Of a DNA stretch of 64,000 bases, positions 1,778-41,589 are shown piece by piece (position 1 is the stretch's first letter; every line of letters starts with the position of its first letter). Location of the stretch: the NCBI GenBank assembly GCA_002344005.1, contig DDTD01000098.1, forward strand, positions 18,432 through 82,431, in the 5' to 3' direction. The DNA comes from Ignavibacteria bacterium UBA2373. Lineage in GTDB: Bacteria > Bacteroidota > Ignavibacteria > Kapaibacteriales > UBA961. The notes beneath the pieces are model-generated. The model ran no database searches. It saw nothing but the letters and a program-made list of their open reading frames with translations, and was not told the origin of the DNA. Made by a program: the position numbers and the translations under genes.

Positions 1778-4030
1778 TTAGGCAACATCAAAAAAACCGT
1801 GCCCCGAACCATACGATGCCAGAAATGCTGCACGCAGTTTCTGATGTTCCGGCTTACGTAAATGTGGATCTGCTTCTATCACGGCAAATGCCTCACGTCG
1901 CGCCATCGTTATTATATCTCCGTCGGACACCAAGTCAGTATAACGAAACTCCGGCATGCCACTTTGTCGGGTGCCTAATATGTCGCCCGGACCGCGCAAT
2001 GTCATATCCACTTCTGCTATCTTGAACCCATCATTTGTGTCCTCCATCGTTTTTAAACGCAGCACCGTTGCCCGCGCAGCCGACAGCTCTTCCGGCTTTT
2101 TGCCTATGTGATAACGGAAATGATCTTTCGTTGCCAAAAAACAATATGATTGCTCCGCACCACGCCCTACTCGCCCACGCAGTTGATGTAATTGAGCCAA
2201 GCCAAAACGTTCCGCATTTTCAATCAACATCACGGTGGCATTTGGCACATCTATCCCCACTTCTATCACCGTTGTTGCCACCAATATGTCATATTCACGC
2301 CTATAAAATGCTTTCATCACATCATCTTTCTCATACCACAGCATCTGACCATGAAGCAAGCCCACTCTAAGGTCGCCAAAAATTTCCGTTTGCAAATGCT
2401 CATAATGTTCAACTGCCGATTTCAGCTCCATCTTCTCGCTTTGTTCCACCAAAGGATACACGATATATGCCTGACGACCTTTCGCAACCTCCGCACGGAT
2501 AAAGTCAAAATATGTGCGCAATTCATTCTCAAAGATAATCTTCGTCCGTATAGGCTTACGGTTCTTAGGCAATTCATTGATAATTGAGACATCCAAATCA
2601 CCATAAAGTGTCATACTCAAAGTGCGCGGAATGGGCGTGGCAGACATCACCAATATATGCGGCACCAAACGCTCTTCTCCATGAGAATCCATCGCCATTG
2701 AACGCAGCTTTGCCCTTTGCATCACACCAAAACGATGCTGCTCATCAATCACGATAAGTCCAATTTTATGATACACTAAGTTTGACTCATTTTTAGATGT
2801 CATTCCCCCGAATAGAGCATGAGTCCCCACCACAATATGCGCCCTCCCCGAAGCGATTTCTTCTTGCACCGAAGCACGGACTTTCTTTTTCTGACCGCCC
2901 ACAAGCTGCACCACATTTACTCCCAGCCCCTCGAATAATGCTGAAATTCCCCGATAATGCTGCTCCGCCAATATCTCCGTTGGTGCCATAATCAATGTCT
3001 GAAAACCCGATTCCACCGCCATCAACATAGCAAATACCGACACGATGGTTTTCCCCGAACCGACATCGCCTTGCAATAAACGGTTCATCGGTTTGCCCGA
3101 ACGAAAATCATCGGCAATCTCATTGAGCACACGCTTTTGCGCCGAAGTCAACTCAAAAGGCAAACGATCGAGCAAAGTACGTGCTTTTGTGCTGCGCGGC
3201 TCTATCGTCACACCTTGCTCTTGCACACGATTACCCCGCCGACGCAATGCCAATATCATCTCGAAAAAAAACAGTTCCTCGAACTTCAACCGTCGTTTAG
3301 CCCAGCCGATTTCACGCAAATTTGTTGGTGCATGCAAAGCAGCAAATGCCCGCCCAAGCTCCGGCAAATCATATTGCCCCAGCATCGCCGCCGGAAAACA
3401 TTCCTCAATCTTGTCCCCATCATATTCCAAAGCCGTCAAAGCCAATCGCCGCAATAATGCCATCCAAATTCCCGCGCTCTTAAGCTCTTTAGTTATCGGA
3501 TATTGCGGCACTATTACTCCCTTAGCAAAAAGCTCCTCGTCCTCATCATTCACCCGCTCAATCGTCGGATGATGGAATTGCAATTTTCGAAATCGCTCCT
3601 CAAACTCGGGATTGCCCGACACTACATAGGTGCCATCTTGTTGCAACACTTTCTCATAATAGCCCACCTGCTGAAAAAACACAAGCTCAGCCGCCTGCGG
3701 CGAATCATCACGCACGGTGACTATGAGCATCTTACGACCGCCCGCAAATTCCTGACGACGAATGGCATGGACACGCACTATTACTGTGGCTTCTCGGCGA
3801 TATTGTACCTCCGACACTATATCATCAGACTTCAACTCCGAAAATAAAGTCTGCTTCCGGCAACGTTCCGCCAATGATGCAAGCGAAAAAATCGAACTTC
3901 TATCCAAATAGGCACGCGGCACATAACGCAGTAAATCCAATGTAGTGTGGATGCCGAGACCAATAAATGCCTCTGCCCGCTTCGGACCCACTCCCTTCAA
4001 AAACTGTATCGGCGTAAAAGTATTTTCCAC
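1778..4030 (-). CDS. recG: ATP-dependent DNA helicase RecG
   Basis: 750 aa. N-terminal wedge domain, helicase motifs (LLQGDVGSGKT Walker A, DEQHRFGV DEAH-box variant, C-terminal HQLRGRVGRG) and collinear RecG architecture. Confidence 0.9.
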   Translation of the reverse strand: MENTFTPIQFLKGVGPKRAEAFIGLGIHTTLDLLRYVPRAYLDRSSIFSLASLAERCRKQTLFSELKSDDIVSEVQYRREATVIVRVHAIRRQEFAGGRKMLIVTVRDDSPQAAELVFFQQVGYYEKVLQQDGTYVVSGNPEFEERFRKLQFHHPTIERVNDEDEELFAKGVIVPQYPITKELKSAGIWMALLRRLALTALEYDGDKIEECFPAAMLGQYDLPELGRAFAALHAPTNLREIGWAKRRLKFEELFFFEMILALRRRGNRVQEQGVTIEPRSTKARTLLDRLPFELTSAQKRVLNEIADDFRSGKPMNRLLQGDVGSGKTIVSVFAMLMAVESGFQTLIMAPTEILAEQHYRGISALFEGLGVNVVQLVGGQKKKVRASVQEEIASGRAHIVVGTHALFGGMTSKNESNLVYHKIGLIVIDEQHRFGVMQRAKLRSMAMDSHGEERLVPHILVMSATPIPRTLSMTLYGDLDVSIINELPKNRKPIRTKIIFENELRTYFDFIRAEVAKGRQAYIVYPLVEQSEKMELKSAVEHYEHLQTEIFGDLRVGLLHGQMLWYEKDDVMKAFYRREYDILVATTVIEVGIDVPNATVMLIENAERFGLAQLHQLRGRVGRGAEQSYCFLATKDHFRYHIGKKPEELSAARATVLRLKTMEDTNDGFKIAEVDMTLRGPGDILGTRQSGMPEFRYTDLVSDGDIITMARREAFAVIEADPHLRKPEHQKLRAAFLASYGSGHGFFDVA

Positions 4031-4232
4031 TGCATCTATCCTCTTGAAAAACCAATCCCTGCAAAATTACTGCAAATCTGTCGGCAAACTTACCAATCGC
4101 TCAATGAGAGCATAGCCATACATGGACCATAGCATATCAGCAATATATCACCAAGACCGCATATTGAGATAAAAGCATATCATCGCATTCTCCGCAAAGG
4201 CAGAATAGATAATGATAATCTACAATGTCAAA

Positions 4233-5144
4233 TCACACATAGATAAATTTATTTCTATCCAAGATATTTTCTTCATCAAGTCGGTATGCTGCAAGGTGTC
4301 CGCCTTTTGCTACGCTATAATCTAAGCAACAAATATTTTCTTTATATAATGATGGTTCGCCTTTGAGCCAATAATGTCCGAAGAAAACAAATTTGTCCTT
4401 GCTTTGATAATAATAATCTGATAATAATTCCGTACTCTCAATAGGATATTCCGGTAAATTTTCAAGTGGTTCAATACTTATTGATTTATATGTCATATCG
4501 GAAGGATTTTCCCACCATTTAATTCGTATTTCTGTTCTTCGTGTTCCGTCTTTATCCATAAAAAAAAGTCCCTCGGGCATTTTTATTTCTTTTCCTTTTA
4601 ATGTCAGTTCAACCGCTTCATGCAATGGAGTTTCTTTTTTTACTGATTGATAAATTAGTTCATCGGTTAATCGGTTATTTACCAATAATTGTCGCAAATA
4701 ATCAATACTTTTTTTGTCCCAACAGGCATGAACAGCTCTGAAAGTATCCGTTTCATAATAAAGCGGCAAAGTCTTGAACCAGTCCAGATAATCTTCATAC
4801 TCTTTTTGGAGGTTCTGAAATTGTTTTAAGGTTTCATAATGCTGAATAATATTTTTAATGAGATGCTTTCGTAAATGCCCTCCTTCGGTTTCTTGAAAAT
4901 GGAAACACAGCGCATTATATTCATGATTTCCCATTAAAGCAATGGCATTGTCACTGTCAACCATTGATTTCACTATTTCAAGGGTTTCCCTAATTTTCGG
5001 ACCCCTGTCAATATAATCCCCAACAAATAGAACTTTTCTGTCAGGATGGGCATATACTCCTTTATTTTTTGCATAACCCAACTTCAGCAATAATTGTTCA
5101 AGTTTGTCTGCATGTCCGTGAATATCTCCAATAAGATCTATCAT
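4233..5144 (-). CDS. Calcineurin-like metallophosphoesterase (PrpE/ApaH-like Ser/Thr phosphatase or diadenosine tetraphosphatase family)
   Basis: MIDLIGDIHGH...VLFVGDYIDRGP...GNHE metallophosphatase motifs. Start placed at internal ATG 5144 (MIDLIGDIHGH) because the motif GDxHG normally lies within ~10 aa of the N-terminus. The ORF track extends it to 5228. Confidence 0.7.
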   Translation of the reverse strand: MIDLIGDIHGHADKLEQLLLKLGYAKNKGVYAHPDRKVLFVGDYIDRGPKIRETLEIVKSMVDSDNAIALMGNHEYNALCFHFQETEGGHLRKHLIKNIIQHYETLKQFQNLQKEYEDYLDWFKTLPLYYETDTFRAVHACWDKKSIDYLRQLLVNNRLTDELIYQSVKKETPLHEAVELTLKGKEIKMPEGLFFMDKDGTRRTEIRIKWWENPSDMTYKSISIEPLENLPEYPIESTELLSDYYYQSKDKFVFFGHYWLKGEPSLYKENICCLDYSVAKGGHLAAYRLDEENILDRNKFIYV

Positions 5145-5327
5145 AGTGTATAAAGTATTATGTGAATTATAGCACAATCTGTACAGTAGGAAAGTAAACA
5201 ATGTATGCACATTGAACATTATATCCAACTATATCAGCAATGCCATGTATGTTCTCTAAACTACAAAATTTTTGGCTCTTGCAATATAATGAATGCAATG
5301 TCCATAATCATTCGTATTTTTTCCATA

Positions 5328-6323
5328 TTATTCATTATCATCAATATTAAAAGCGTTTAGAATTTCTGTCCATTTTTGTTGAAGAACAGTTTTATTGGGG
5401 AGTTTTGTTTCGTAATCGGCTATAAGTGTGGGCGAAAGGCTTCTGTTTAAGGCATATTCTACTACCGTGTCGTCTTTGCCTTTACAGAGCAAAATGCCTA
5501 TACTTGGGTTTTCGTATTCAGTTTTTACATCACGGTCGAGTGCTTCGAGGTAGAAATTGAGTTGCCCCAGATGTTCGGGCTTAAAGCGTTCTATTTTGAG
5601 TTCGATAGCCACCAAGCTGCGCAGTTTTCTGTGATAAAACACCAAATCAATGGCAAAATCTTGATTACCTACCTGCAAAGGATATTCTTCACCCATAAAT
5701 GCAAAATCGCGTCCAAATTCCAATAAAAAAGCCGTGATATTGTGGGAAATGGCTTTTTGTAAGTCTTTTTCAACATGTTGTTCGGGCAGATTCAAGAGTT
5801 CCAACACATACGTATCTTTAAAAACATTGGTAATGTCTTGCGGCAAAGTCTTATGCGCCTCGCTGAGTTGTGCATTCCCAAGCATTACTCGCTCATAATA
5901 TGAGGAATTGATTTGACGTTCAAGTTCTCTTTTGGATAGGCGTTCTTTGATGCTTAACCGCACATAAAACTCACGTTCTTGTGCTGTTTTACAAGAAGAA
6001 AAAATAATTGTGTGATGCGTCCAATCTAATTCTCTCACCAGTGGTGCGAGTTTTGGCTCATCTTTGTACGTTTCATAAAACTGCTTCATACGCCAGAGGT
6101 TTTGGGCAGAAAATCCCTTTATATTCGGTTCGGTTTTGGCAATAAATTCCGCCAGCTCTTTTACAACAGATTTTCCCCATGATTTTGCGCTTACTTGCAG
6201 ATGCAAATATTCACCAATATTCCAATAAAGCATTACCAATTCATGATTAACGGCTTGGTAAGCACGCTGTTTGGCTTCTGCAATCAGCTTTGTGATATAC
6301 GAAAATTGAGTTTGTAGTTCCAT
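5328..6323 (-). CDS. DUF1016 / YhcG-family PDDEXK nuclease-domain protein
   Basis: 331 aa. N-terminal YWNIGEYL-type helical region and C-terminal PD-(D/E)XK core (DLVFYHRKLRSLVAIELKIERFKPEHLGQLNFYL), characteristic of the YhcG/DUF1016 family. Confidence 0.7.
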   Translation of the reverse strand: MELQTQFSYITKLIAEAKQRAYQAVNHELVMLYWNIGEYLHLQVSAKSWGKSVVKELAEFIAKTEPNIKGFSAQNLWRMKQFYETYKDEPKLAPLVRELDWTHHTIIFSSCKTAQEREFYVRLSIKERLSKRELERQINSSYYERVMLGNAQLSEAHKTLPQDITNVFKDTYVLELLNLPEQHVEKDLQKAISHNITAFLLEFGRDFAFMGEEYPLQVGNQDFAIDLVFYHRKLRSLVAIELKIERFKPEHLGQLNFYLEALDRDVKTEYENPSIGILLCKGKDDTVVEYALNRSLSPTLIADYETKLPNKTVLQQKWTEILNAFNIDDNE

Positions 6324-6392
6324 GAGTCCTTTTTCATTTTAATTTTTTTTCGATACAATGTAATTATCGCTGCCGAGCTTGATTGTATGTTT

Positions 6393-6686
6393 TTATATCT
6401 GTGTGTCGGGAAGATTTTCGAGCTGTATGCCACAAGATAAAAAGCGTACATTGTGCGCAAGATTCATCAATTTCATGCTACCAACTCTATCATAATTTCT
6501 GACATCAGGAAAGTGATACTTGACTATTTCGGCTGGATAATGGCAAACATTTTTTTCTCTTTGGATAACTTTCTCAAAATTTTCACATTTTGCAGAACCT
6601 AACTTCAGCAATAATTGTTCAAGTTTGTCTGTATGTCCGTGAATGTCTCCAATAAGATCTATCATAGTGTATAAGTATATATCCAT
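6393..6686 (-). pseudogene. Truncated, decayed paralog of the upstream metallophosphoesterase (5' remnant only)
   Basis: Translation MDIYLYTMIDLIGDIHGHTDKLEQLLLKLGSAKCENFEKVIQREKNVCHYPAEIVKYHFPDVRNYDRVG matches the first ~30 codons of the 4233..5144 gene almost exactly. It then degenerates (GDYIDRGP becomes VRNYDRVG) and stops after 97 codons. DNA 6597..6745 duplicates 5083..5290. Confidence 0.55.
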
Positions 6687-6848
6687 CTGTATCAGCTATG
6701 TCATATATGTTCTCTAAACTACAAAAATTTAACTACATACTCTCACCCCTAATAATCGCTTTTGTCCGTGTTTCTATGGCTTGGAAAGCACAGAGAGCAA
6801 TGAAGATAGGGCGTTTCCTCGTAATTTGCACTTAGTTTTTCAACACAA

Positions 6849-9176
6849 ATGTTATCGAAGTTCATGGCTACAGCACAGCAAAAAGGAGGAAAGACCTCTT
6901 CGACGGGTCAGATATTGACATCCATACCAATGTGGGTGCTCGGTATAGTATTCATTGTGACAACATTGATTTTTTTCAGAGAGAATATCTTCGGGAAGGG
7001 TTATCTGTGGGATGATGTGGCGGAGTATATCTACCCGTTTACGACATATTCGGCACGACTTACCGCCGAAGGCCAGATACCGTTTTGGAATCCCTATACA
7101 TTTTCGGGTATGCCGTTCGCAGCGGATTTCCAGACACAGTATTGGTATCCGTTCCATACGATGGCATTTTTATTTTTGGATAATCAAGGTAATTTATCGC
7201 CAAAGTTCGTGGAAAGCATTGTGTTTTTGCATGTATTACTCGCGCAATGGACAATGTATATGCTGTGTCGTTATAAGGGCATCAGCGGCATGGGGTCGGT
7301 GTTGGCGGCAGTGGCATTCAGTTTTTCGGGATCGCTGGCAGTACGCACCATCCACCCTATGGTCGTCTATCACATGGCATGGTTCCCTTTGTTTTTGATG
7401 CTCATAGATAAAGCGGCTTTTCAAAAGAATATAAAGTCATTATTCGGTGCGGCTTTGGTGCTGGGGCTTATGCTCATCTCGGGTCACCCGCAAACGTCGG
7501 CTTTTTGTTTGATTTTTACGGTGATATATTTACTGTGGATGGGTATTGGCGCATTAAAAGCCAAGGAGTTGAGCGTTGCAGGATTTGGTACAGGGGCAGC
7601 AACAGCTATTGGGACTATAGTACTCGCGGCAATGATGGTCGCTATACAATTCCTTCCGGCAAAAGAACTTGCAGATTTGTCCGAACGGAGCGAAATCACC
7701 TATGAAAAAACAGCTGACGGCTCTTTGATGCCCTCACAGTTGTTAACAGCTATTGTTCCTAATCTCTATGGGAAATCGTTCCCCGGGAAATCCGATCCGC
7801 CGTATTATTTGCAAGATGCAGAAGGCAAACCGGCAGAAACCCATTACTATTGGGATACTTCTTTTTACTTCGGCAGCGTCACTCTCATTTTGGGTCTATT
7901 CGGTGTTTTGACTTTATGGAATACCCGTTTTGGTTCTTTTATTATAACGATGTGCGGCATTGCCTTTCTCTATGGCTTAGGTAAAAATGGCTTTTTGCAT
8001 CCCCTTTTGCAGGATATTCCCGTTCTTGGTTCCTTTCGTAATCCTGCCCGTATGATGTTTTATTGGAGTTTTGGTTTATCTATCATGGCGGGTTTTGGCT
8101 TTGATGCCTTGCGCAATGCGGATAAATCTGCTGTTATCAAACGTTTTTTGATACCTGCGGGTGTCATTTTAGCTATTGCCTTACTTGTGTCTATTGGGGC
8201 TTTGAATGGTATGCTTGGTACGCCGGAGAATGCAGTTGATGCGGTGAGCGGTTTCGGTATGCAGGCATTGGTGATGATTATTGCGGCATTTATTATTGGT
8301 CATATTGTTCATCGCGGATGGGTAAACCCCGTAGTGGGCGGAGCCATTGCGACGGTATTGATCTTTATTGATTTGACAATTTCATATTCGGGATTCAGTG
8401 CTTCGAAGGAAAATCCGGCACAGCAATTTGCGCTTGATGAGCAGACAAAACAATCGTTTGCAATTAAGCCACCGCAAGAAATTTTCCGGGTTTCGATGCG
8501 CAATAAATATGGCATGGCTATGAAAAGGAATCAGGGACCATTGGATAATATTATGTTATTCGAGGGCTATAACCCAATATTGCTCTCACGTCGCAGCCCC
8601 ATGGCACAAACATCAAAGGAAGCTGCCGATCTTTTGAATATTCGTTATGAACTCGTTATTGATTCGATGCGTGGTCAATTAGCATTTGCCGAAAGACCAA
8701 GTGTACTGCCCCGTGCACGTATGGTCTATGATGTGAAAATTGTTCCGACGGATAATGTGAAATCGGTAATGAAAGCCGGAGGCATAGACTATAAACATCA
8801 ATCGGTCATCGAAGAACAATTACCGGAAAAACTTTCGGGAAAATCTGCCGACAGCGTCAAACATAGCATTGTATGTACTTCTTATACGGACAATGAATTC
8901 AGCTATACCATTGAAACCGAGGAGCCGGGATTATTATCATTGAGTGAAATCTGGTATCCGGCATGGAAAGCAACCATAGATGGCAATGAAACTCCGATGT
9001 ATAGAACCAATTACAGCTTACGCGGAGTCTATGTGCCAAAGGGTAAACATACCATTACCATGAAATATGATTCGGCAAGCTTTGCCACAGGAAAAATGCT
9101 GACCATCATTGGACTTGTCCTTTGCGGCGGCGGTTTTGTCGTAACAATGGTAATGGATAAAAAAAAGAAATCATAA
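6849..9176 (+). CDS. YfhO-family polytopic membrane protein (putative glycosyl-transfer-associated membrane protein)
   Basis: 775 aa, more than 10 predicted TM helices. C-terminal region ...EIWYPAWKATIDGNETPMYRTNYSLRGVYVPKGKHTITMKY resembles the conserved YfhO C-terminus. The true start may be a downstream Met. Confidence 0.6.
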   Translation: MLSKFMATAQQKGGKTSSTGQILTSIPMWVLGIVFIVTTLIFFRENIFGKGYLWDDVAEYIYPFTTYSARLTAEGQIPFWNPYTFSGMPFAADFQTQYWYPFHTMAFLFLDNQGNLSPKFVESIVFLHVLLAQWTMYMLCRYKGISGMGSVLAAVAFSFSGSLAVRTIHPMVVYHMAWFPLFLMLIDKAAFQKNIKSLFGAALVLGLMLISGHPQTSAFCLIFTVIYLLWMGIGALKAKELSVAGFGTGAATAIGTIVLAAMMVAIQFLPAKELADLSERSEITYEKTADGSLMPSQLLTAIVPNLYGKSFPGKSDPPYYLQDAEGKPAETHYYWDTSFYFGSVTLILGLFGVLTLWNTRFGSFIITMCGIAFLYGLGKNGFLHPLLQDIPVLGSFRNPARMMFYWSFGLSIMAGFGFDALRNADKSAVIKRFLIPAGVILAIALLVSIGALNGMLGTPENAVDAVSGFGMQALVMIIAAFIIGHIVHRGWVNPVVGGAIATVLIFIDLTISYSGFSASKENPAQQFALDEQTKQSFAIKPPQEIFRVSMRNKYGMAMKRNQGPLDNIMLFEGYNPILLSRRSPMAQTSKEAADLLNIRYELVIDSMRGQLAFAERPSVLPRARMVYDVKIVPTDNVKSVMKAGGIDYKHQSVIEEQLPEKLSGKSADSVKHSIVCTSYTDNEFSYTIETEEPGLLSLSEIWYPAWKATIDGNETPMYRTNYSLRGVYVPKGKHTITMKYDSASFATGKMLTIIGLVLCGGGFVVTMVMDKKKKS

Positions 9177-28330: not shown

Positions 28331-28463
28331 ATCCCGCAGGGATGACACGTTTATAGAATTCATATTTCGTGAAAATTCATCCACCCCGTCCTGCGGACAA
28401 GCCTCAATGAGGGGAATTTGAAATACATTAGCGTGAATCTCGCAGCGATGACATGATATTAGA
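28331..28463. repeat. Intergenic hairpin-repeat cluster (copy A: X-Y-X' modules)
   Basis: Module X atcccgcagggatgacacgtttatagaa (28331..28358, palindrome ATCCC-gca-GGGAT). Module Y ttcatccaccccgtcctgcggacaagcctcaatgagggga (28372..28415, palindromes GTCC-tgc-GGAC and CCTC-aat-GAGG). Degenerate X' atctcgcagcgatgacatgatattagaa (28437..28463). Confidence 0.6.
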
Positions 28464-28516
28464 AGTAATGCCATATTTTTGAATCAACGTTTTTGTACTT
28501 TGTGAATCGAATCTCC

Positions 28517-30106
28517 ATGAAAATCACACTCATCCTTTCCTTTGTGCTTTGCTGTGTCATTGCAACAGCGCAAGAACCCGTTCAACTTGAAGTTTGGACA
28601 ACCGTTAAAAGCTATGGCTTTGACCTTATTGAAAACCCTTTTGGTGTAGGTAGTCGTATGGCTTATGTACCTAATTTCAGAAACAAAGAAATTCCGCATG
28701 GCTTTGTTATTTCTTATAGAGAACCCAATACAGATATTCAAGGTTTTAATAAGACTTATACATGGGCATTCACAAAACCAAACGACACGATAAACAGATT
28801 TAGTTGGCCACGCAATTTTTTCCCTTATGCTACTCCCGATATGAACGGTGACAGCCAAAGAGATTTTATGAATGGTACAGGTGTTTTTTATCTTGGAACT
28901 GATAAAGATGAACCGGATACTTTACAAAAATTTCAAATTCAAGCAGGTGGTGTAGGATATGCAAAAATGAATAATGATAATTGTGACGATTTGTATTATT
29001 ATGGTACTTCGCCCGCGATTGTGAACTTTGTTTTTGGTAATAGCCAAGCTGGTACTTATCAAACTGCGAGTGTCATAAGTACATATCTACAAAAAGACTC
29101 TCAATTAGAAGAAGAAATGAAAGCCGTCTATAAAAACAAGCAAGGTCAATGGCGACTTTTGACACAAAGTAAGGGGTGGACTGATGGTCTTTATGAAAGA
29201 ATTTATCAATCAAAAAAATCAGCATTGCGATTATATGCTCTTGAATTTACTGTTATCAATACCGATAGCACTATTGTGACGGCAACACAAATAGATGAAT
29301 ATAAAGACCCAAAATGGTTAGAATTTGAAGAAGACTATAATAGTAAAGACCCAAGTATTTGGTCACCATTTAATTCGTCAAAATTATTATATCAGAGTGA
29401 GCATTATCCAAAAACACTCTATTATGCTTCGATGAATACCATGCCCGACAAAGATAAAAAATATGATTCGTATGCAACATTTTTTGATCTTACCAATGAT
29501 AAAATTGTTCCATCGAATGCTGTCGTTAATGTTGCTGCACCCGAATGTAAAATTCTTAAGCATAGCATTGATGGTGATAATCGTGAAGATATGTATGTAA
29601 AATCAGGTCCATTTATCTATTTTTATTCTGTAGATGCCACAGGTATTATAAAAAACACATTACGCTTTACTTTACCGGAAGATAGATACAAAAGTGGATT
29701 AAATACACTGCAATCTATTGCCGACATTAATAATGACGGATTAGATGATATCGCTCTCATGAGTTCAGACAATACTGTTGGAAATTATTTTGCGATTGTG
29801 CTTGGTAAAAACATACTAACGCATACTATAGAAGAATCTGATCAATATTTTTCAATTGGTTCCCCGTACCCTTTGCCCAATAGTTCACAATTAACAATAC
29901 CTTTACGTAGTGAAAAAAACGGATTGTATTCCTTAACCTTGTTTTCCGTTCAAGGTTCTGCATATCCATTATTTGTAAATAAAGAAATGAACGAGGGAAA
30001 AATGGATTTTATGATGGATATTTCTCTCTATAGTTCCGGTAATTATATTCTTCGATTCTCCGATGGCAAAACTTCGGTAGAAAATAATATTATCATTACG
30101 CATTAA
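28517..30106 (+). CDS. Hypothetical secreted protein with T9SS C-terminal sorting domain
   Basis: Signal peptide MKITLILSFVLCCVIATAQ. C-terminal ~80 aa beta-sandwich tail (SLTLFSVQGSAYPLF...GNYILRFSDGKTSVENNIIITH) typical of Por_Secre_tail. Flanked on both sides by the hairpin-repeat family (see findings). Confidence 0.5.
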   Translation: MKITLILSFVLCCVIATAQEPVQLEVWTTVKSYGFDLIENPFGVGSRMAYVPNFRNKEIPHGFVISYREPNTDIQGFNKTYTWAFTKPNDTINRFSWPRNFFPYATPDMNGDSQRDFMNGTGVFYLGTDKDEPDTLQKFQIQAGGVGYAKMNNDNCDDLYYYGTSPAIVNFVFGNSQAGTYQTASVISTYLQKDSQLEEEMKAVYKNKQGQWRLLTQSKGWTDGLYERIYQSKKSALRLYALEFTVINTDSTIVTATQIDEYKDPKWLEFEEDYNSKDPSIWSPFNSSKLLYQSEHYPKTLYYASMNTMPDKDKKYDSYATFFDLTNDKIVPSNAVVNVAAPECKILKHSIDGDNREDMYVKSGPFIYFYSVDATGIIKNTLRFTLPEDRYKSGLNTLQSIADINNDGLDDIALMSSDNTVGNYFAIVLGKNILTHTIEESDQYFSIGSPYPLPNSSQLTIPLRSEKNGLYSLTLFSVQGSAYPLFVNKEMNEGKMDFMMDISLYSSGNYILRFSDGKTSVENNIIITH

Positions 30107-30230: not shown

Positions 30231-30368
30231 AAAAATTCATCCACCCCGTCCTGCGGACAAGCCTCAATGAGAGGAAGATTCGAAATTCAATCCCACAGGG
30301 ATTACATGTTTATAGAAAAACATCCAGCCCGTCGGACTGTGTCCGCCACCCATCAAGATGTGAAGATT
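30231..30368. repeat. Intergenic hairpin-repeat cluster (copy B: Y-X-Y' modules)
   Basis: Y (30231..30277) differs at 1 of 44 positions from the Y of copy A. X atcccacagggattacatgtttatagaaa (30290..30318). Diverged Y' catccagcccgtcggactgtgtccgccacccatcaagatg (30321..30360, palindrome CGGAC-tgt-GTCCG). Confidence 0.6.
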
Positions 30369-30436: not shown

Positions 30437-33400
30437 TCAATGCAGAAATGGTAACATTACCGAATATGTGCCGGCATTGAAATGCAGATAATAAAGTCCA
30501 TGCGGGAGTGTTTGTTGGGTGTAATTGAGTGTATGTTCGCCTTTGGGAACCATGTCTTGGAGCAAGGTTGCGACTTTTTCTCCCATTGCATTATAGAGTG
30601 TGATGGCGGTTGATGATGCGAAGCCGAGCGAGTAACGCACTATGATATTGCCTGCTGTTTGGTCAATGGTTGCGGAGTATTTGGTGTCGCTGGTGCTGAT
30701 GAGCCGCCCTTGAGCAAAGCACGATGTGACGCTGACTGTGGCTTGTGCGGGTTGGATAATAAAGCAATTGCCTGTGATGCCATTGATAAAGATATGGTAT
30801 TGGAGTGAATCGGCTAAGAATACGGTGAATGGTATATGGACTATGGTGCCATTGTTGCGAAGTTCTGTTCCATTGAGATCAAGGTGTATATATTGATTTT
30901 GTCCTTGGTTTTGTATTGTTTCTTGTATGTTCCAATCGGCATTTATTGCGCCTGTTGTGATTGGTTGAGAGCTTCGTGCCATCATTCTTGCGGGATAATG
31001 GATTGTAAGTCGTAGTGAATCGGCTTGGATATGATTCCAATCATCCGCGAGAGCATTGATGGTGAGTGTGATGGGTTTGCCGGGTTCAATGGCGGCTGTG
31101 TCATTGGCGGTTAATTGCATGGTTGTCGGTTGATGATTGCCAAAGATATGGTAATGGAGTTCTTCGCCTGTGCTGAAACGGAAGATATAGTCGGCAGAAT
31201 GGTTGCCGAATGTTGTGGGCGCGTATGTGATGGCGAATTGTTTGGCTTCATCGGCAGCGAATTGCACGGGAAAATTTGCCGGATTGATTGAGAATGCATC
31301 GCTATTGGTTGATGGCATTGTCACAGTAAGTGTGACGGGTTTGTTTTTGTGTGGGTTGGTGATGGTGATCATGCGTGCTATGCTTTTACACGCTGTTGTT
31401 GTTCCCATGTCAATAGTCATTGTTTGGGTGCATGATTTGACGGTAATGCTGAGTGAGTCTGTGGCTGTGCAACCATATTCATTTGTTGCTATGCAGTAAT
31501 ATGTTGTTGTTTGTGAAGGGCTTGCAAGTGGCGAAGGACAATCATAACAAGAAAGGGAGCCGTCTTTGGGAAACCAATCATAGCGTGGCGATGGCGAACA
31601 GTTGAGCATAATCTGTTGTCCTTGGCAGAGTATTGTGTCATTGCCGATTGCGATAGTATGGTCAGATAGCTGTATTGTGACGGAGTCCGTTTTTTTGCAA
31701 TAATCGTCGTTTATTTCTACATAATAGGTTGTTGTTTGTGTTGGTTTGACGAGAGTTTCGGAGCAATCACTGCATTGTATATCTGATGCTCCATACCAAC
31801 GATAGCGTTTTCCTCCACTTGCTGTGAGAGTGGAGCTTTGTCCTTGACAAATAGTGTGTGATGGCGTTATGGTGGTATTCATGGATGTGAGAGTGATTGT
31901 CACGGAATCTATGGCGAAGCATTGCGCGGATTGATTGCCTTGCACATAATATGTGGTTGTTGTTTTGGGTTTGGCTATGGGATTGGGGCATTGAGTGCAT
32001 GAGAGTCCTTCGGCAGGATACCAGAAATAGGATTGAGTGCCGACAGCGGAGAGTTGGACGGAATCTTGTGCGCAGAGAGTGACATCATCGGAGGCGGTGA
32101 TGGTGAAGTTTTTGACGGTGACAGTAACGGAATCTTCGGCGGAACAATCGGGCGTTTGATAAATTCTGACATAGTATGTTGTTGTTTCCGTTGGTTTGAC
32201 GATGGTAGTGCGGCAATCGTCGCAAATCAGTGTCGGATGTTTTCGCCATTGGTATCGTATTCCTTTGCTTGCCGTAAGAGCGATTGCCTCTCCTTTGCAT
32301 ACTGCTGTGTCTGCCCCTGCATCGGCTTTTACGCCATCTACTGAGATGGTGATGGAATCATAAGCGATGCACGTTTGATCATAAGCGGTGACATAATATG
32401 TTGTTTTTTGTGTTGGGGTGGCAAGTGGTGTGGGGCAATCCGAACAAGAGAGCGTGGGGTCGGGTCGCCATTGGAAGGTTTTTCCTCCTATGGGTTGCAA
32501 ACGAACGGACATACCTGAACATACGGTTGTGTCATTACCCAATTCAGTGACCAATGCCTTGGTGTCCACTATGACGGTGTCGTCACGGTAGCATCCTTCT
32601 TTTGTTTGGATGTGAACATAGTATATGGTCTTTTTGAGCGGTGAAGCAATGGGATTAGGACAATCGGTGCATGATAAAGTAGGGTCTTTTCGCCATGTAT
32701 AAATATCGCCTCCTGTGGCATTGAGTTCCACATTGGAACCCGGGCATATACTTCTGTCGGGTCCGGCAGTTGCTTGCAATAGAGTAATGTCCACCGTGAC
32801 GGAATCGAGTCTGAGGCAGCCATTGACATCATATATTTTGACATAGATTTTGGTCTTTTTGCGAGGCGCAACCGTTGGATTGGGACAATGGTTGCATGAC
32901 AGCGAGGGGTCTCCATACCATTCATATCTATGAGCATCGGAAGCATAGAGTTGGGCTTTTGCTCCAAGGCATACTGCTGTGTCATTGCATACTTTACCAC
33001 CTTGGAAAAAAGTCCTGTTCACCCAAACGGTATCGAAAATAGGGCAATCGAAGACATCTTTTGATTCGACGATATAGCGTGTTGATTTTCTGGGATTGGC
33101 ATTGACAGAAGCGCATGTTGGGCAATCGAGTGTGTTGCTCGGAGTCCATTTATATGTTCCATTGCCTCCGGTAACAGTAAGGGGAGCCGTTAAACCAAAA
33201 CAAAGTGTTGTATCGCCTTTTGCAGTGAGTGACGGAAAAGGAGGTTTAGTATCCGGTATGGGCTGAATGCCACCCCAAAACATATAGGAATCCAAATAAC
33301 CATAGCCGCTGACAAAACAGCCGAAGCTTTCGGAAGCAGTAAGGAGATTAGTTCCGTCATTTACTTTGATATGGGCATATATATATTCCAAACAGTTTTT

Positions 33401-34732
33401 ACCTGCGGCTGAAGAGGCGAAATTTTTGAATTGGGTTTCGGGCGGTATTCTTTTTCCATTCAATAAGAGAGAGTTTTTTGCTCTATTGGCAATAATGACG
33501 GTGAGAAAATTTGACAGATAGACTTTGCTGTTTGGATTGTCTTTTGTGCCTACAAAGAGCGGATTGGCAACAAGGTATTCTTTGCGGTATTGTCGGGATG
33601 GCGGCACAATCATAAAAGCCGGATCGCCATCTCTGGGCGGAGCAGCCGACACAGCCGTGCCTTTCATATATCCCACAAGTATCGGAGCCGAAGCAAATAT
33701 GCGCATAGGACCTACTGCTTTGATGGTATAGACCTCTGAACGCGACAGCACCTTAGTAAGCGCACCATTAATTATTATTTCGGTATTGTCAAATTGGCTG
33801 ATGATACGCACACGGTCATTGGGGACGGAGGTGATGGAAGAAATGTCAATCGGAGCAACAAAGAATTCATTGCCCCAAAGCTCGAGAGGCGGCATTTGCT
33901 CAAAAAGATGATCGCGTGATGTGGGTAATGTATCCGGCACGGGCGAACGTTGATGTCCGGCAAATACAGCAATGGGTTTATCTGCTTTGACAATAGTGTT
34001 TGTGATATCGGGCGATAAAGCAGAAAGGGTAATTAATGCTTGCAGTAAGCATGATTCGCCTTTTTGTAAGGTGACGGTAAACGATTGAGTATTGCGCCCG
34101 ACAAGCGACACCGAGGATTGGACATCCACTTTTGTATTATCTTCGGTAGCAAGGATAATTGCTTGCGAAGCCGTAGAGCGATCATCTAATAGTGATGGTT
34201 CCAAAATGTTTTTGAATCCATCGGAATTGTAAGCCATGATTTTATATTCTTTGCCTAATGCCTCAATAGGGTAGATAAGAGCGGCATCGCTGGTTAAATC
34301 GGCTTGGTTCAAAGCATTGACTGATATGGGTTCAGGAGAGGCAATAGAAAAATAAGGCAGACCTATTGTACCATTGTCACCATTCTTCATTCTCCCATTG
34401 GTAATTGACATACCCAATGGTTCATACTCTTGCCAACGGAAAGCAAGTGCTCCAAATCCATTCGCATCCAAAGTGACTGTTTTTGTGGCATTAGCCCCCA
34501 TGCGGCTTTGAGCATTCACAGTAACAACAAAATCTTTTTTTCCTGTGAAAAACAAACGCAATGAATCACGCGAAAAAATCGTGTCATGCACATTGGGCAT
34601 AAAAGCCACGAAAAATTGTGTTCCATGAGATATAGGGATAGCTTGCGCAGAAACCAATCCCCGAGAACAAAGTATGACTATCAGAATGAGAAGTGATGTG
34701 AAGCAATTCCCTTTTGAAACAATGGAAGACAT
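30437..34732 (-). CDS. Giant (1431 aa) T9SS-secreted adhesin-like protein with eight tandem ~75-aa Cys-containing Ig-like repeats
   Basis: Signal peptide. Central array of repeats of the form Y.W.PDPTLSC.DCP.P.A.P...TTYYV......C...DSVTV.V (8 copies, aa ~535-1130). C-terminal T9SS tail ...AITLYNAMGEKVATLLQDMVPKGEHTLNY...GLYYLHFNAGTYSVMLPFLH. Confidence 0.6.
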   Translation of the reverse strand: MSSIVSKGNCFTSLLILIVILCSRGLVSAQAIPISHGTQFFVAFMPNVHDTIFSRDSLRLFFTGKKDFVVTVNAQSRMGANATKTVTLDANGFGALAFRWQEYEPLGMSITNGRMKNGDNGTIGLPYFSIASPEPISVNALNQADLTSDAALIYPIEALGKEYKIMAYNSDGFKNILEPSLLDDRSTASQAIILATEDNTKVDVQSSVSLVGRNTQSFTVTLQKGESCLLQALITLSALSPDITNTIVKADKPIAVFAGHQRSPVPDTLPTSRDHLFEQMPPLELWGNEFFVAPIDISSITSVPNDRVRIISQFDNTEIIINGALTKVLSRSEVYTIKAVGPMRIFASAPILVGYMKGTAVSAAPPRDGDPAFMIVPPSRQYRKEYLVANPLFVGTKDNPNSKVYLSNFLTVIIANRAKNSLLLNGKRIPPETQFKNFASSAAGKNCLEYIYAHIKVNDGTNLLTASESFGCFVSGYGYLDSYMFWGGIQPIPDTKPPFPSLTAKGDTTLCFGLTAPLTVTGGNGTYKWTPSNTLDCPTCASVNANPRKSTRYIVESKDVFDCPIFDTVWVNRTFFQGGKVCNDTAVCLGAKAQLYASDAHRYEWYGDPSLSCNHCPNPTVAPRKKTKIYVKIYDVNGCLRLDSVTVDITLLQATAGPDRSICPGSNVELNATGGDIYTWRKDPTLSCTDCPNPIASPLKKTIYYVHIQTKEGCYRDDTVIVDTKALVTELGNDTTVCSGMSVRLQPIGGKTFQWRPDPTLSCSDCPTPLATPTQKTTYYVTAYDQTCIAYDSITISVDGVKADAGADTAVCKGEAIALTASKGIRYQWRKHPTLICDDCRTTIVKPTETTTYYVRIYQTPDCSAEDSVTVTVKNFTITASDDVTLCAQDSVQLSAVGTQSYFWYPAEGLSCTQCPNPIAKPKTTTTYYVQGNQSAQCFAIDSVTITLTSMNTTITPSHTICQGQSSTLTASGGKRYRWYGASDIQCSDCSETLVKPTQTTTYYVEINDDYCKKTDSVTIQLSDHTIAIGNDTILCQGQQIMLNCSPSPRYDWFPKDGSLSCYDCPSPLASPSQTTTYYCIATNEYGCTATDSLSITVKSCTQTMTIDMGTTTACKSIARMITITNPHKNKPVTLTVTMPSTNSDAFSINPANFPVQFAADEAKQFAITYAPTTFGNHSADYIFRFSTGEELHYHIFGNHQPTTMQLTANDTAAIEPGKPITLTINALADDWNHIQADSLRLTIHYPARMMARSSQPITTGAINADWNIQETIQNQGQNQYIHLDLNGTELRNNGTIVHIPFTVFLADSLQYHIFINGITGNCFIIQPAQATVSVTSCFAQGRLISTSDTKYSATIDQTAGNIIVRYSLGFASSTAITLYNAMGEKVATLLQDMVPKGEHTLNYTQQTLPHGLYYLHFNAGTYSVMLPFLH

Positions 34733-39581: not shown

Positions 39582-40601
39582 TTATCTGCACGCTTCCTTA
39601 ATTAACGCCGCTGCTTCTTTATGACCTAACTCCTTTGCTTTTTGTAAATCTGCACAAGCTAATGTTTCTTTCCCATCTTGTCCATATAGCAGTGCTCGAT
39701 TAAAGTATGCCTTGGAATCTTGCGGATTAAGTTCGATTGCTTTGCTATAATCCGCAATGGCACCATTGCTATCTCTTAAATCTTTTTTTACTATACCACG
39801 ATTATAATATGCCTTGGCATATTGAGGATTAAATTCTATCGCTTTTGTCCAATCTGCAATGGCTCCATTTTTATCACCTAAACTATATTTAGCAACACCA
39901 CGATTAAAATATGAGTCCGCAAACTGAGGATTAAATTCTATGGCTTTCGTATAATCGGCTATCGCGGCATTTTTGTCGCCCAAATCATCTTTAGCTACAC
40001 CACGATTATAATATGCAATGGCATCTCGAGGATTAAGTTCTATTGCTTTAGTATAATCGAAAATTGCGCCTTCTTTATCGCCTAAATCATCTTTAGCTAC
40101 ACCACGATTATAATATGCCTTAGTATCTTGAGGATTAAGTTCTATCGCCTTCGTATAATCTGCAATTGCACCCTTCTTATTTCCTAAAGCTGATTTAGCA
40201 TTGCCACGATTATAATATGCCTCAGCATATTGAGGATTAAGTTCTATCGCCTTTGTCCAATCTGCAATAGCTCCATATTTATCACCTAAAGCGGATTTAG
40301 CAAGACCACGATTAGAATATGCCTCAGCAAGTTGTGGATTAAGCTCAATCGCCTTCGTATAATCAGTTATGGCGCCATTTTTATCATCTAAATCTGATTT
40401 AGCAGTCCCACGATTATTATATGCAGCAGCATATTGAGGATTAAGTTCTATCGCTTTGCTAAAATCGTCAAGGGCTTCTTTAAGCAAACCTTTCTGGACT
40501 TTTGCAAGACCTGCTGTAAAATAACTTTCGGCGGTTTGGGCTGTGGCGCTCATCACCGCGGCAATACACACGACAAAAAAAACGATTACTCTCTTTTTCA
40601 T
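39582..40601 (-). CDS. Secreted tetratricopeptide-repeat protein (9 consecutive TPRs)
   Basis: Signal peptide MKKRVIVFFVVCIAAVMSATAQ then repeated AxxYxNRGxAKxxLGDxxGAIxDYTKAIELNPQ units. Confidence 0.8.
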   Translation of the reverse strand: MKKRVIVFFVVCIAAVMSATAQTAESYFTAGLAKVQKGLLKEALDDFSKAIELNPQYAAAYNNRGTAKSDLDDKNGAITDYTKAIELNPQLAEAYSNRGLAKSALGDKYGAIADWTKAIELNPQYAEAYYNRGNAKSALGNKKGAIADYTKAIELNPQDTKAYYNRGVAKDDLGDKEGAIFDYTKAIELNPRDAIAYYNRGVAKDDLGDKNAAIADYTKAIEFNPQFADSYFNRGVAKYSLGDKNGAIADWTKAIEFNPQYAKAYYNRGIVKKDLRDSNGAIADYSKAIELNPQDSKAYFNRALLYGQDGKETLACADLQKAKELGHKEAAALIKEACR

Positions 40602-40665
40602 GAGGGCTTTTTGATTAATGGGTATTTAATATTTCTTCAAAAATATGAAATCTGTGATTCAATCA

Positions 40666-41589
40666 CTATTTCTTGCAGTTTTCTTCTATCATTACTTCCG
40701 CTTCTTTATGACCTAATTCACTTGCTTTTTGCAAATCAGCACAAGCTAATGTTTCCTTCCCTTCTTGTCCATATACGATAGCTCGATTATAATATGCCTC
40801 CGCGAATTGAGGATTAAATTCTATTGCCTTTGTAAAATCGAAAATGGCTCCTTTAGTATCACCTAATCTCGATTTAGCATATCCACGATTTAAATATGAC
40901 GATGCATCTTGGGGATTAAGTTCTATCGCTTTTGTGTAATCTGCAATGGCACCTTCTTTATCGCCTAAATTATTTTTAGCATATCCACGATTAGTATATG
41001 CCTCGGCAAATTGAGGATTAAGTTCTATCGCTTTAGTATAATCAGCAATAGCAGCATAGTTATCTCCTAAAGAGAACTTAGCAACACCACGATGAGTATA
41101 TACATCGGCAAGTTGAGGATTAAGTTCTATTGCTTTTGTATAATCAGCAATGGCTCCTTTAGTATCACCTAATTCTGATTTAACAATTCCACGAACAGCA
41201 TATACATCGGCACTTTGAGGATTAAGTTCTATTACTTTCGTAAAATCGTCTATTGCACTGTATTTATCTCCTAAAGAGAACTTAGCAAGACCACGATTAG
41301 TATATGCCTCGGCTAGTTGAGGATTAAGTTCTATTGCTTTGTTACAATCGGTAATAGCTCCATAGTTATCACCTAAAACATTCTTAGCATTGCCACGATT
41401 AGTATATGATGCCACGGCAGATTTAGGGTTAAGTTCTATTACTTTGGTAAAATCGGCAAGGGCTTCTTTATATAATCCTTTCTCGGCTTTTTCAAGACCT
41501 GCTGCAAAATAACTTTCGGCGGTTTGGGCTGTGGAGGTCATCACCGCGGCAATGAACACGACAAAAAAAACGATTACTATCTTCTTCAT
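40666..41589 (-). CDS. Secreted tetratricopeptide-repeat protein, tandem paralog of 39582..40601
   Basis: Same signal peptide (MKKIVIVFFVVFIAAVMTSTAQ) and TPR unit. Upstream region is also duplicated (40602..40680 resembles 41590..41660). Start moved to ATG 41589. Confidence 0.8.
   Translation of the reverse strand: MKKIVIVFFVVFIAAVMTSTAQTAESYFAAGLEKAEKGLYKEALADFTKVIELNPKSAVASYTNRGNAKNVLGDNYGAITDCNKAIELNPQLAEAYTNRGLAKFSLGDKYSAIDDFTKVIELNPQSADVYAVRGIVKSELGDTKGAIADYTKAIELNPQLADVYTHRGVAKFSLGDNYAAIADYTKAIELNPQFAEAYTNRGYAKNNLGDKEGAIADYTKAIELNPQDASSYLNRGYAKSRLGDTKGAIFDFTKAIEFNPQFAEAYYNRAIVYGQEGKETLACADLQKASELGHKEAEVMIEENCKK

Follow-up and report, generated by a model that had tools for sequence, protein, structure and literature searches.

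A YhcG/DUF1016 nuclease gene between two copies of a phosphoesterase promoter and gene start: a probable insertion with long target duplication

Organisation of the locus

Analysis of the window, by which we mean the whole 64-kb stretch of DNA studied, confirmed the proposal of the initial annotation that a YhcG/DUF1016 nuclease gene is flanked on either side by a copy of the promoter and 5' end of a metallophosphoesterase gene (Table 1). The repeat first placed at 5083–5290 and 6597–6745 is the one described here, although its limits had been set 10–20 nt off. The block from 4040 to 6850, including the phosphoesterase gene, was AT-rich (GC 31–39% vs. 44–48% in the flanks), and could have come in already so arranged.

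Table 1. Positions, strands and characteristics of the features at the locus (numbering of the window).
Feature	Position	Strand	Remarks
recG helicase gene	1778–4030	minus	Pfam DEAD, Helicase_C, RecG_wedge, RecG_dom3_C; GC 48%; core flank next to the phosphoesterase gene
Metallophosphoesterase gene, PPP family (ApaH/PrpE/Pnkp-phosphatase-like)	4233–5144	minus	intact, 303 aa; Pfam Metallophos, E 2.6e-14
Repeat copy A	5067–5272	minus	continuous with the intact phosphoesterase gene
Copy A, codons 1–26	5067–5144	minus	
Copy A, 5' UTR	5145–5257	minus	
Copy A, promoter-like box	5258–5272	minus	AAAATTTTGTAGTTT (minus-strand reading)
Insert tail	5273–5327	minus	55 nt, YhcG stop codon to copy A; part of the inserted DNA
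YhcG/DUF1016 PD-(D/E)XK nuclease gene	5328–6323	minus	intact, 331 aa; PF17761, E 3e-43; PF06250, E 1.5e-55
Insert leader	6324–6587	minus	264 nt; no homologue detected; encodes the tail of ORF 6393–6686 beyond the phosphoesterase homology
Chimeric 97-codon ORF	6393–6686	minus	7 upstream codons, 26 phosphoesterase codons, 64 leader-encoded residues
Repeat copy B	6588–6730	minus	box at 6716–6730, UTR shortened by the 63-nt deletion, codons 1–26; upstream of YhcG
YfhO-family membrane protein gene, divergent	6849–9176	plus	Pfam YfhO; GC 44%; core flank next to copy B

The start codon of the phosphoesterase gene was assigned to ATG 5144–5142 and not to TTG 5228. Its NCBIfam matches, to Pnkp, PrpE and ApaH, were all below threshold. 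Orthologues showed 78–98% identity and were 303 aa long in every case, with pN/pS values of 0.13–0.30 for the window gene, and the 5' end was highly conserved at the nucleotide level across genera. Elsewhere the orthologues were single-copy, and 84%-identical ones were found in unrelated loci.

The assignment of the second gene to YhcG/DUF1016, with its catalytic residues, was borne out by both Pfam models and by a conserved D...ExK: DUF1016_N and YhcG_C scored 147.6 and 187.8 bits against gathering cut-offs of 32.8 and 32.5, and the HMMs of the PADLOC phage-defence candidate PDC-S02 matched with an E-value of 1e-126 (421 bits). The catalytic D...(D/E)xK motif was conserved; across 16 diverse homologues D226 and K243 were invariant, and E213 and E241 were present in at least 90%. 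Values of pN/pS between 0.08 and 0.22 against three strains indicate that yhcG is under purifying selection in the window species, and together with the catalytic residues they argue that the gene is functional there. The nuclease role is a prediction. No solved structure was related to YhcG by sequence, and the literature searched yielded no biochemical characterisation of YhcG/DUF1016 nuclease activity. A PDC-S02 representative has been cloned and tested against phages T4, T5 and T7 in E. coli B, and was not among the four candidates that gave protection (bioRxiv 10.1101/2024.09.26.614923). A two-gene module of YhcG and phosphoesterase was ruled out, since none of 80 YhcG loci had a phosphoesterase homologue nearby.

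The repeat copies aligned directly in two blocks, 5067–5153 with 6588–6674 (87 nt, 95% identity) and 5220–5272 with 6678–6730 (53 nt, 89% identity), between which positions 5154–5219 of copy A corresponded to just 3 nt in copy B, a net deletion of 63 nt. This pair was one of the few long repeats in the 64-kb window, and its sequence occurred nowhere else in it. The box at the upstream end of each copy is presumably a −7 box, matching five of the six specified positions of the Bacteroides consensus TAnnTTTG; this near-consensus Bacteroidetes element was present in all four copies examined, two each from the window and from the sister species L009, while a sigma-70 promoter scan was uninformative for the host phylum. 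In a four-way alignment of both copies from both genomes, homology between the copies ended at ...GGGTTATGCAAAA in the window and in L009 alike, and by this measure the DNA demonstrably duplicated is limited to 206 bp. At 206 and 143 bp, copies A and B both exceeded the 30-bp flanking-repeat threshold (criteria of Furuta et al., 2010). An earlier suggestion that the upstream copy could transcribe the nuclease gene agrees with their shared strand, with the conserved box and with the lack of any terminator-like site in 4000–7000, and copy B presumably drives yhcG.

The insert between the copies was 1315 bp long, well within 20 kb, and YhcG was its sole Pfam-recognisable gene. The insert was associated with neither a mobility gene nor terminal inverted repeats, nor with an attC-like site, and Pfam detected no methyltransferase gene among the flanking genes. 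As there was neither a Pfam transposase domain at the insert nor a pair of inverted repeats bracketing 5273–6587, the insert does not qualify as a transposon or insertion sequence. Searches of 95 loci and the window with blastn and tblastx returned no source for the leader or the tail, so that the limits of the insert are set only by the end of the repeat homology. Comparison with other YhcG loci gave no conserved element boundary beside yhcG, the tail resembled neither those loci nor the phosphoesterase profile, and no Rfam family was found in 4000–7000. A weak resemblance of the tail sequence ATGGAAAAAATACGA to an hsdS start, such as that repeated at locus L031, was discarded because the match was too short and of low complexity.

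The 97-codon ORF that had been taken for a decayed phosphoesterase does exist. From its internal Met, however, its product was identical to the phosphoesterase at 24 of 26 residues over exactly that length and matched nothing beyond (BLASTP), a pattern that is not one of decay. It belonged to no Pfam or NCBIfam family, and its called length varied, at 97 or 90 aa among conspecific contigs but 57 aa in the sister species; it is probably not a gene. A profile HMM of 120 orthologues detected no phosphoesterase remnant past residues 1–26(31) in the leader or tail of either the window or L009.

Related genomes and the source of the nuclease gene

The sister species L009, whose phosphoesterase was 94% identical, had the same order as the window (YfhO, copy B, leader, yhcG, copy A, phosphoesterase, RecG). 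Its copy B was full-length, its yhcG lacked 636 bp, and its A/B homology reached approximately 10 nt further upstream than in the window. The leaders of the two species were 83% identical, which makes the leader ancestral to both, and the shared order indicates that the arrangement is older than the species split, i.e., that the event was ancient rather than recent. Identity was higher between copies A and B within L009 (94.8%) than between the A copies of the two species (90.0%); four informative sites and one indel grouped the copies by genome, and one site grouped them by position. These sites, few as they are, point to gene conversion between copies A and B.

In strains L102 and L098, positions 6603–6715 were replaced by a 6.1-kb island encoding a RecQ/DpdF-like helicase and a 2OG oxygenase, by which most of copy B was lost directly behind the promoter box. 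Since yhcG was nevertheless intact and under selection in these strains, its expression would not depend strictly on the UTR and stub of copy B. With a second, defence-like island behind the same promoter box, the site behaves as a small hotspot. The repeat homology in these strain variants ended at the same junction after codon 26. A scan of metagenomes with YfhO gave conspecific contigs only, and no empty site among them. The nearest outgroup (72% YfhO identity) did not provide one either: synteny downstream of YfhO (TIM, PgpA, BNR) was kept, but a different gene lay upstream and no phosphoesterase was present there.

The three nearest non-conspecific homologues of the window YhcG (82–84% aa identity) were all encoded in hsdM–yhcG–hsdS operons with overlapping stop and start codons, and 8 of the 29 genome loci of its clade adjoined hsdM or hsdS. 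Nucleotide homology to the hsdM–yhcG–hsdS loci covered 6339/6327–5328 only, i.e., the ORF and at most 16 nt. Because its closest relatives all lie between hsdM and hsdS, the window copy most likely derived from such a type I restriction operon. These relationships indicate a foreign, horizontally acquired gene, in line with the mobile or defence context proposed for it earlier. DUF1016 and RhuM genes have been reported as enriched next to type I restriction–modification systems, and together with GIY-YIG genes they have been found as accessory genes embedded in the operons, although how they move was not described (Milman et al., 2023; PMC9881135). The window copy belongs to a clade in which its closest relatives lie between hsdM and hsdS, yet it is solitary, in a housekeeping neighbourhood and with no hsd gene detected beside it by Pfam. 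At an independent locus, L020, an HsdM C-terminal remnant was detected in the leader (E 3e-8), and the flanking repeats, of at least 204 bp, were copies of an epimerase gene 3' end; no such HsdM remnant was found in the window leader.

A survey across 80 genomes, searching up to 600 bp to either side for direct repeats of 35 bp or more, found them at 14 of 67 YhcG loci and at 3 of 215 neighbouring ORFs (Fisher p = 2e-7). Flanking duplications were thus approximately fifteen times commoner for the DUF1016/PDC-S02 family than for its neighbours, an enrichment that may mark recently inserted genes rather than YhcG itself, since the control genes were mostly old core genes. The repeats were specific to each locus. 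Often they were copies of the ends of adjacent genes. They included duplicates of the 3' ends of upstream genes at L020, L032, L034, L071 and L087, among which L020, L034 and L087 involved poorly conserved 3' ends and intergenic DNA, and, at L031, L042 and L072/76/80, duplicates of the 5' ends of downstream genes or of the DNA upstream of these. At L031 and L042 the repeat was the conserved hsdS 5' end, and at L042 a RhuM gene was framed likewise.

Origin of the arrangement

The explanation we favour, with somewhat better than even confidence, is that approximately 1.3 kb of foreign DNA with yhcG entered together with a target duplication of approximately 206 bp, an event of the type called 'insertion with long target duplication'. 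The piece (264-nt leader, yhcG ORF and 55-nt tail) would have entered the 5' end of the phosphoesterase gene in the common ancestor of the window species and its sister species, coupled to the direct duplication of the promoter-like box, the 5' UTR and codons 1–26. Because both the host gene's promoter and its start lie in the duplicated segment, downstream copy A would have kept the phosphoesterase whole and self-sufficient, while upstream copy B would have placed a promoter and a translated 26-codon stub, without a terminator, before the nuclease gene. Such insertions may survive because they are non-disruptive and supply expression signals. Mechanistically, the fragment could have been captured where the products of an unequal exchange between sister strands, or the ends of widely staggered breaks, were joined, either of them possibly provoked by nuclease-induced breakage, as proposed by Furuta et al. 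(2010). Subsequently, copies A and B would have exchanged sequence by gene conversion and copy B would have lost 63 bp in the window lineage; yhcG would have been maintained by purifying selection in the window species and have lost 636 bp in the sister species, and the helicase island would have taken the place of most of copy B in some strains. As no empty site was found, we infer that the ancestral locus held a single copy and that insertion and duplication took place together, in one step.

An unlikely alternative is a Campbell-type integration, in which a circle carrying yhcG and approximately 206 bp of phosphoesterase promoter and 5' end from a related donor entered by one homologous crossover. 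It predicts exactly the order repeat–insert–repeat, with the shared segment as the repeat, and the conservation of the phosphoesterase 5' end across genera makes a crossover between lineages feasible; the gene-conversion signal suggests that the copies still recombine. The same route via the conserved hsdS 5' end would also explain L031 and L042, including the similarly framed RhuM gene, but it leaves unexplained the repeats at L020, L034 and L087, which consist of intergenic DNA and poorly conserved 3' ends. The donor order that it requires, with yhcG directly upstream of the phosphoesterase, occurred at none of the 80 genome loci, and no circular form was seen, the 1.5-kb repeat-bounded contigs L007 and L008 being ordinary de Bruijn breaks at a 29-mer common to both repeat copies.

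We see only a slim chance that genes of the YhcG/DUF1016 family are selfish elements, each autonomous and consisting of a single gene. The nuclease itself would then introduce widely spaced nicks or breaks into a new target, its own gene, usually having escaped from a type I restriction operon, would be captured with a 40–400-bp duplication, and the repeats would allow amplification, excision and spread. If true, insertion with long target duplication, known for 25 years, would gain a defined catalyst, together with a model family that is abundant and tractable.

Capture by tandem gene duplication, the origin suggested in the initial annotation, appears very improbable. A whole-gene duplication, followed by decay of the upstream copy or by its replacement with yhcG past codon 26, is formally compatible with a promoter and 5' end upstream and an intact gene downstream, yet homology fell from 95% to nothing at a single point that was the same in two species and in the strain variants, and only 206 bp was demonstrably duplicated, so that the claim of one decayed duplicate was not supported. 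The sole hint of a remnant, a weak and non-significant LENLP match between the leader ORF and phosphoesterase residues 226–235 (E 0.16–0.17), was absent from L009, and in neither species did the profile HMM pick up a remnant within the leader or the tail. Neither was any trace of the phosphoesterase 3' end found between yhcG and copy A. No relative carried two full genes, an intact second phosphoesterase being the observation that would have spoken for an ancient duplication. Similar short flanking duplications at unrelated YhcG loci also argue against this origin, and the recurrent pattern in the family fits better than a chance capture.

Equally improbable is a two-step promoter capture, in which yhcG inserted upstream of the phosphoesterase promoter without duplication and a copy of the 206-bp segment with promoter and 5' end was placed ahead of it only later (e.g., through duplication of the whole unit and loss of one yhcG), to be retained because it turned the nuclease gene on: the conserved promoter-like box ahead of yhcG, and the duplicated upstream or start regions of downstream genes at L072/76/80 and L031, are compatible with selection for expression signals, but two or three precise rearrangements are needed instead of one, the duplicated 3' ends of upstream genes at L032, L034 and L071 supply no promoter, and yhcG is intact and selected in strains in which copy B is mostly gone.

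Comparison with known mobile elements

Insertion with long target duplication was reportedly described by Nobusato in 2000, and we know of no mechanism or catalyst for it that has emerged since 2010. In that year both were still lacking according to the account of Furuta, Abe and Kobayashi (2010, NAR 38:2428; PMC2853133), who cite Nobusato et al. (2000) for such insertions of restriction–modification genes. In the cases covered there, the repeats measured 46–423 bp and overlapped gene ends, and flanking repeats were significantly commoner than for average genes (PMC2853133). The window locus resembles them in being a few-kb segment with a restriction-type nuclease gene but neither transposase nor integrase, and in its long, variable, locus-specific direct repeats, which presumably correspond to the target and in many cases extend over the ends of adjacent genes. 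It differs in several respects. The published inserts contained both R and M genes and were checked against an empty site, whereas the window has a solitary accessory DUF1016 nuclease gene, of a kind that as a rule lies within type I operons, and no methyltransferase; the published hosts were mostly Proteobacteria, with a cyanobacterium and an actinobacterium, whereas the present host is an uncultured Bacteroidota/Ignavibacteria-like organism; and here the duplicated piece comprises a promoter and a 5' coding end. As the insert carries the nuclease gene alone, without a modification gene, we class it as working like these cases with a different cargo.

Under the favoured explanation, the locus would be a clean, dated example of long target duplication whose cargo is minimal, a single nuclease gene, and phylum and cargo would both be new for such insertions. 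It would also illustrate that such a duplication can take in a promoter together with the start of a gene, by which the host gene is spared and the newcomer is given expression signals. The repeat enrichment in the DUF1016/PDC-S02 family may offer a practical system for studying the movement of defence genes without transposases and the exit of accessory genes from restriction operons.

Other elements are similar in part. As with the attL/attR sites of integrase-borne islands, which restore the end of a target gene, the direct repeats are formed by one end of a host gene that stays intact. In contrast to such islands, the window insert encodes no integrase, what is repeated is a 5' end together with its promoter, and the variation of the repeats between loci indicates an element without a fixed attP. 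Free-standing homing endonuclease genes are comparable as single nuclease genes that spread horizontally and insert between host genes or at their margins. Homing entails no target duplication; no cognate cleavage site or allele without the gene was identified, and YhcG is not known to act site-specifically. An integron gene cassette is not supported for the window: no attC-like element was detected in it (no match at E ≤ 1e-3 with an nhmmer profile of the palindrome family from other YhcG and phosphoesterase loci) and its repeats are host promoter and coding sequence rather than a recombination site.

A likeness to integron attC cassettes was recognised in a more distant YhcG subclade (approximately 59% aa identity) and not in the window. 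Members of this subclade had the ends GTTAGC.../...GCTAAC followed by a 130–190-nt imperfect palindrome ending in AAAC-GTTA, and they occurred in arrays with toxin–antitoxin, ATPase and reverse-transcriptase genes. The same palindrome repeat family also preceded orthologues of the window phosphoesterase.

Structure of the yhcG locus and its upstream junction

The yhcG gene, encoding a DUF1016 PD-(D/E)XK nuclease, was framed by two direct repeats: copy A, joined to the intact metallophosphoesterase gene, and copy B, upstream of yhcG. The repeat comprised two blocks, 5067–5153 matching 6588–6674 (87 nt, 95%) and 5220–5272 matching 6678–6730 (53 nt, 89%), separated by 66 nt in copy A and 3 nt in copy B; it did not occur again within the 64-kb window. 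In gene sense, copy A consisted of a promoter-like box AAAATTTTGTAGTTT (5272–5258), a 113-nt leader and phosphoesterase codons 1–26. The initial annotation, which had described a duplicated promoter and 5' end around the nuclease gene, was therefore correct to within 10–20 nt.

Features of the yhcG locus
Feature	Positions	Strand
recG	1778–4030	minus
Metallophosphoesterase gene, 303 aa	4233–5144	minus
Copy A	5067–5272	
Tail, 55 nt	5273–5327	
yhcG	5328–6323	minus
Leader, 264 nt	6324–6587	
97-codon ORF	6393–6686	minus
Copy B	6588–6730	
yfhO, divergent, beyond the 97-codon ORF	6849–9176	plus

Its additional proposal that one duplicate had decayed was not borne out. Similarity of the 97-codon ORF to the phosphoesterase was confined to 26 residues, of which 24 were identical. 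A profile HMM built from 120 phosphoesterase orthologues, run on translations of copy B and the leader, matched residues 1–26(31) only, in the window and the sister species (L009) alike. When the four repeat copies, two per species, were aligned together, A/B homology stopped at one shared point, ...GGGTTATGCAAAA, which on this alignment is a recombination junction rather than the result of slow decay of a full-length paralogue. Tandem duplication of the whole phosphoesterase gene followed by decay of one copy is less likely, given this abrupt junction common to both species and the absence of any phosphoesterase remnant detectable by the HMM in the leader or tail.

The most economical history is a single event that both inserted a fragment and duplicated 206 bp of its target. 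Because the host gene's promoter and start would lie within the duplicated piece, the insertion could be tolerated, and copy B would supply yhcG with a putative promoter and a translated stub, with no terminator between. As candidate routes, the fragment may have been captured where sister strands joined unequally or where breaks were widely staggered, or a circle with the 206 bp in common may have integrated through a single crossover; a two-step promoter capture, which would need two or three exact rearrangements, is less likely. No empty site was found among the relatives and metagenome contigs examined.

Age, maintenance and strain variation

Conspecific contigs with the identical arrangement came from several metagenomes, and one MAG (GCA_002343245.1) had it too. 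The sister species (phosphoesterase 94% identical) had flanks, copy B, leader, yhcG, copy A and the phosphoesterase gene in the same order, so the event is older than the split of the two. Its copy B was full length, and its yhcG had lost 636 bp, equivalent to window 6013–5377; on the sequences compared, the 63-bp deletion in copy B is specific to the window's lineage. Four informative sites and an indel grouped the copies by genome and one site grouped them by position, and the identity of A and B within the sister species (94.8%) exceeded that of orthologous A copies between species (90.0%), indicating gene conversion between repeat copies, albeit from few sites.

The catalytic D-x(n)-E-x-K that the initial annotation had expected in the nuclease was present as D226 and E241-x-K243, conserved across the family. 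Between-strain pN/pS was 0.08–0.22 for yhcG and similar, 0.13–0.30, for the phosphoesterase gene. The low yhcG values and the conserved catalytic residues thus indicated that the nuclease gene was kept by selection in the window's species. In the same strain pairs, pS in yhcG (0.07–0.13) exceeded pS in the neighbouring phosphoesterase gene (0.02–0.06) by a factor of 2–6, possibly reflecting inter-strain allele exchange or a different mutational history.

Two conspecific strain contigs (L102 and L098, flanks ~97% identical) carried a 6.1-kb island in place of window 6603–6715 (L102:407–6538; L098:1–4199), encoding a 2OG-Fe(II) oxygenase, a 1511-aa RecQ/DpdF/PsyrT-like helicase and a 165-aa protein in the orientation of yhcG. 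It started directly past the copy B promoter box, and thus a second defence-like module landed behind the same promoter, the site behaving as a small hotspot. The island ended at GGGTTATGCAAAA, so that most of copy B was deleted but its final 13 nt survived, together with copy A, yhcG and the leader. Short-read assemblies break at the repeat, which in several samples left the yhcG unit on a contig of its own. A circular yhcG form, considered from two short Logan contigs (L007, 1550 nt; L008, 1456 nt), was rejected: L007 starts and finishes with one 29-mer common to copies A and B, and the contig ends are an assembly effect at this 29-mer.

Origin of yhcG and cassette-like relatives

The YhcG protein matched PADLOC candidate PDC-S02 (E 1e-126), a representative of which was not among the candidates protecting E. 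coli from T4, T5 and T7 (bioRxiv 10.1101/2024.09.26.614923). Homologues of 60–84% identity were scattered across Bacteroidota and several other phyla. Going by the taxon names of homologues, the host would be an uncultured Bacteroidota/Ignavibacteria-like bacterium. The three nearest non-conspecific ones (82–84%) all lay between hsdM and hsdS with overlapping stop/start codons, and hsdM or hsdS adjoined YhcG in 8 of 29 genome loci of this clade. Nucleotide homology between the window and the hsdM-yhcG-hsdS loci was limited to the ORF plus no more than 16 nt upstream of it. Given this setting and the confinement of homology to the ORF, the window gene, now solitary, most likely descends from a gene embedded in an R-M system. 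Similarity searches of the compared loci detected no source for the leader and tail. DUF1016 and RhuM have been reported as enriched beside such R-M systems, with no mobility mechanism described there (PMC9881135).

The 4040–6850 block (phosphoesterase gene, yhcG, leader, both copies) had 31–39% GC vs. 44–48% in the flanks (yfhO 44%, recG 48%), and GC3 of the phosphoesterase gene was 27%. In an outgroup contig (L109, 72% YfhO), a 2-hydroxyacid dehydrogenase gene lay upstream of yfhO instead. This makes the interval a variable islet, situated where synteny breaks, and all of it may be foreign DNA.

A YhcG subclade at ~59% amino acid identity to the window (L050, L054, L058, L060, L061, L065, L069, L074, L075, L077–L079, L082–L085, L090, L091, L094, L095) formed a sharply bounded ~1.1-kb unit, 80–97% identical in nucleotides across distant taxa, with inverted ends GTTAGCAGTAATGGC / GCCACTACTGCTAAC and its own candidate -7 box TAAATTTG. 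A 130–190-nt imperfect palindrome ending AAAC-GTTA was present in six examined loci (L050, L054, L078, L082, L085, L095), and in L075, L078 and L090 the flanking repeats ended in a GTT-type core at the left boundary (GTTA; GTT in L090). This unit resembles an integron-type cassette that carries an attC site. The same attC-like repeat family (L107:189–318, 776–828; L106:4907–4973, 7370–7487) also lay directly upstream of phosphoesterase orthologues (84% amino acid identity), and after a bacteriorhodopsin gene; the phosphoesterase gene thus seems to move as a cassette elsewhere in the Bacteroidota. Among phosphoesterase loci, shared upstream homology ended ~38 nt ahead of the ATG.

Flanking repeats across the YhcG family and elsewhere in the window

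Upstream and downstream DNA of each YhcG gene was compared in 80 genome loci, searching the 600 bp to either side of the gene for direct repeats 35 bp or longer (E <= 1e-6). Such repeats flanked 14 of 67 testable YhcG genes vs. 3 of 215 neighbouring ORFs of 200–500 aa (Fisher p = 2e-7), a control set not matched for gene age; two of the three flanked controls sat in the same repeat arrays. Some of the 14 loci are orthologous sites, leaving approximately 10 independent events; further flanked cases were lost at contig ends. The repeats were locus-specific, corresponding to the 3' end of the upstream gene (L020, L032, L034, L071, L087), to the hsdS 5' end duplicated ahead of yhcG (L031, L042), or to the stretch immediately upstream of the downstream gene (L072, L076, L080). 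L020 is an independent close parallel to the window locus: the repeats bracketing its unit, 204 bp long or more, derive from the 3' end of an epimerase gene, and its leader still codes for an HsdM C-terminus (E 3e-8).

Arrays of three similar repeats set apart single accessory genes: YhcG, an AAA_14/DUF4143 ATPase and a reverse transcriptase (L068:5725–10998); YhcG and a UPF0175/DUF3368 pair (L065:1–4170); and RhuM and YhcG, each preceded by an hsdS 5'-end copy (L042:52–2332).

Insertion with long target duplication was described for type I–IV R-M genes by Furuta, Abe and Kobayashi, extending Nobusato et al. 2000 (PMC2853133). There, repeats of 46–423 bp, often overlapping gene ends and without mobility genes, were commoner around R-M genes than around average genes; the mechanism was left unexplained, with double-strand breakage suggested, and a life cycle of invasion, amplification via the repeats and release was proposed (PMC2853133). 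The window locus agrees with their structural criteria in repeat length, lack of mobility genes and insert size, but does not carry the combination of R and M genes that they require.

Elsewhere in the window, a 45-nt direct repeat (98% identical; 28372–28416 and 30232–30276) surrounded a single 537-aa ORF (28493–30106) with a hydrophobic, signal-peptide-like N-terminus; the pair may be a duplication framing another gene or a repeated intergenic element. Further repeats were a 102-nt unit occurring in tandem 13 or more times over two blocks (39585–41481), a 225-nt periodic repeat present five times (31494–32440) inside a 1431-aa ORF (30437–34732), and two tandem paralogous segments, 2637 nt apart and 73–77% identical (50040–53855).
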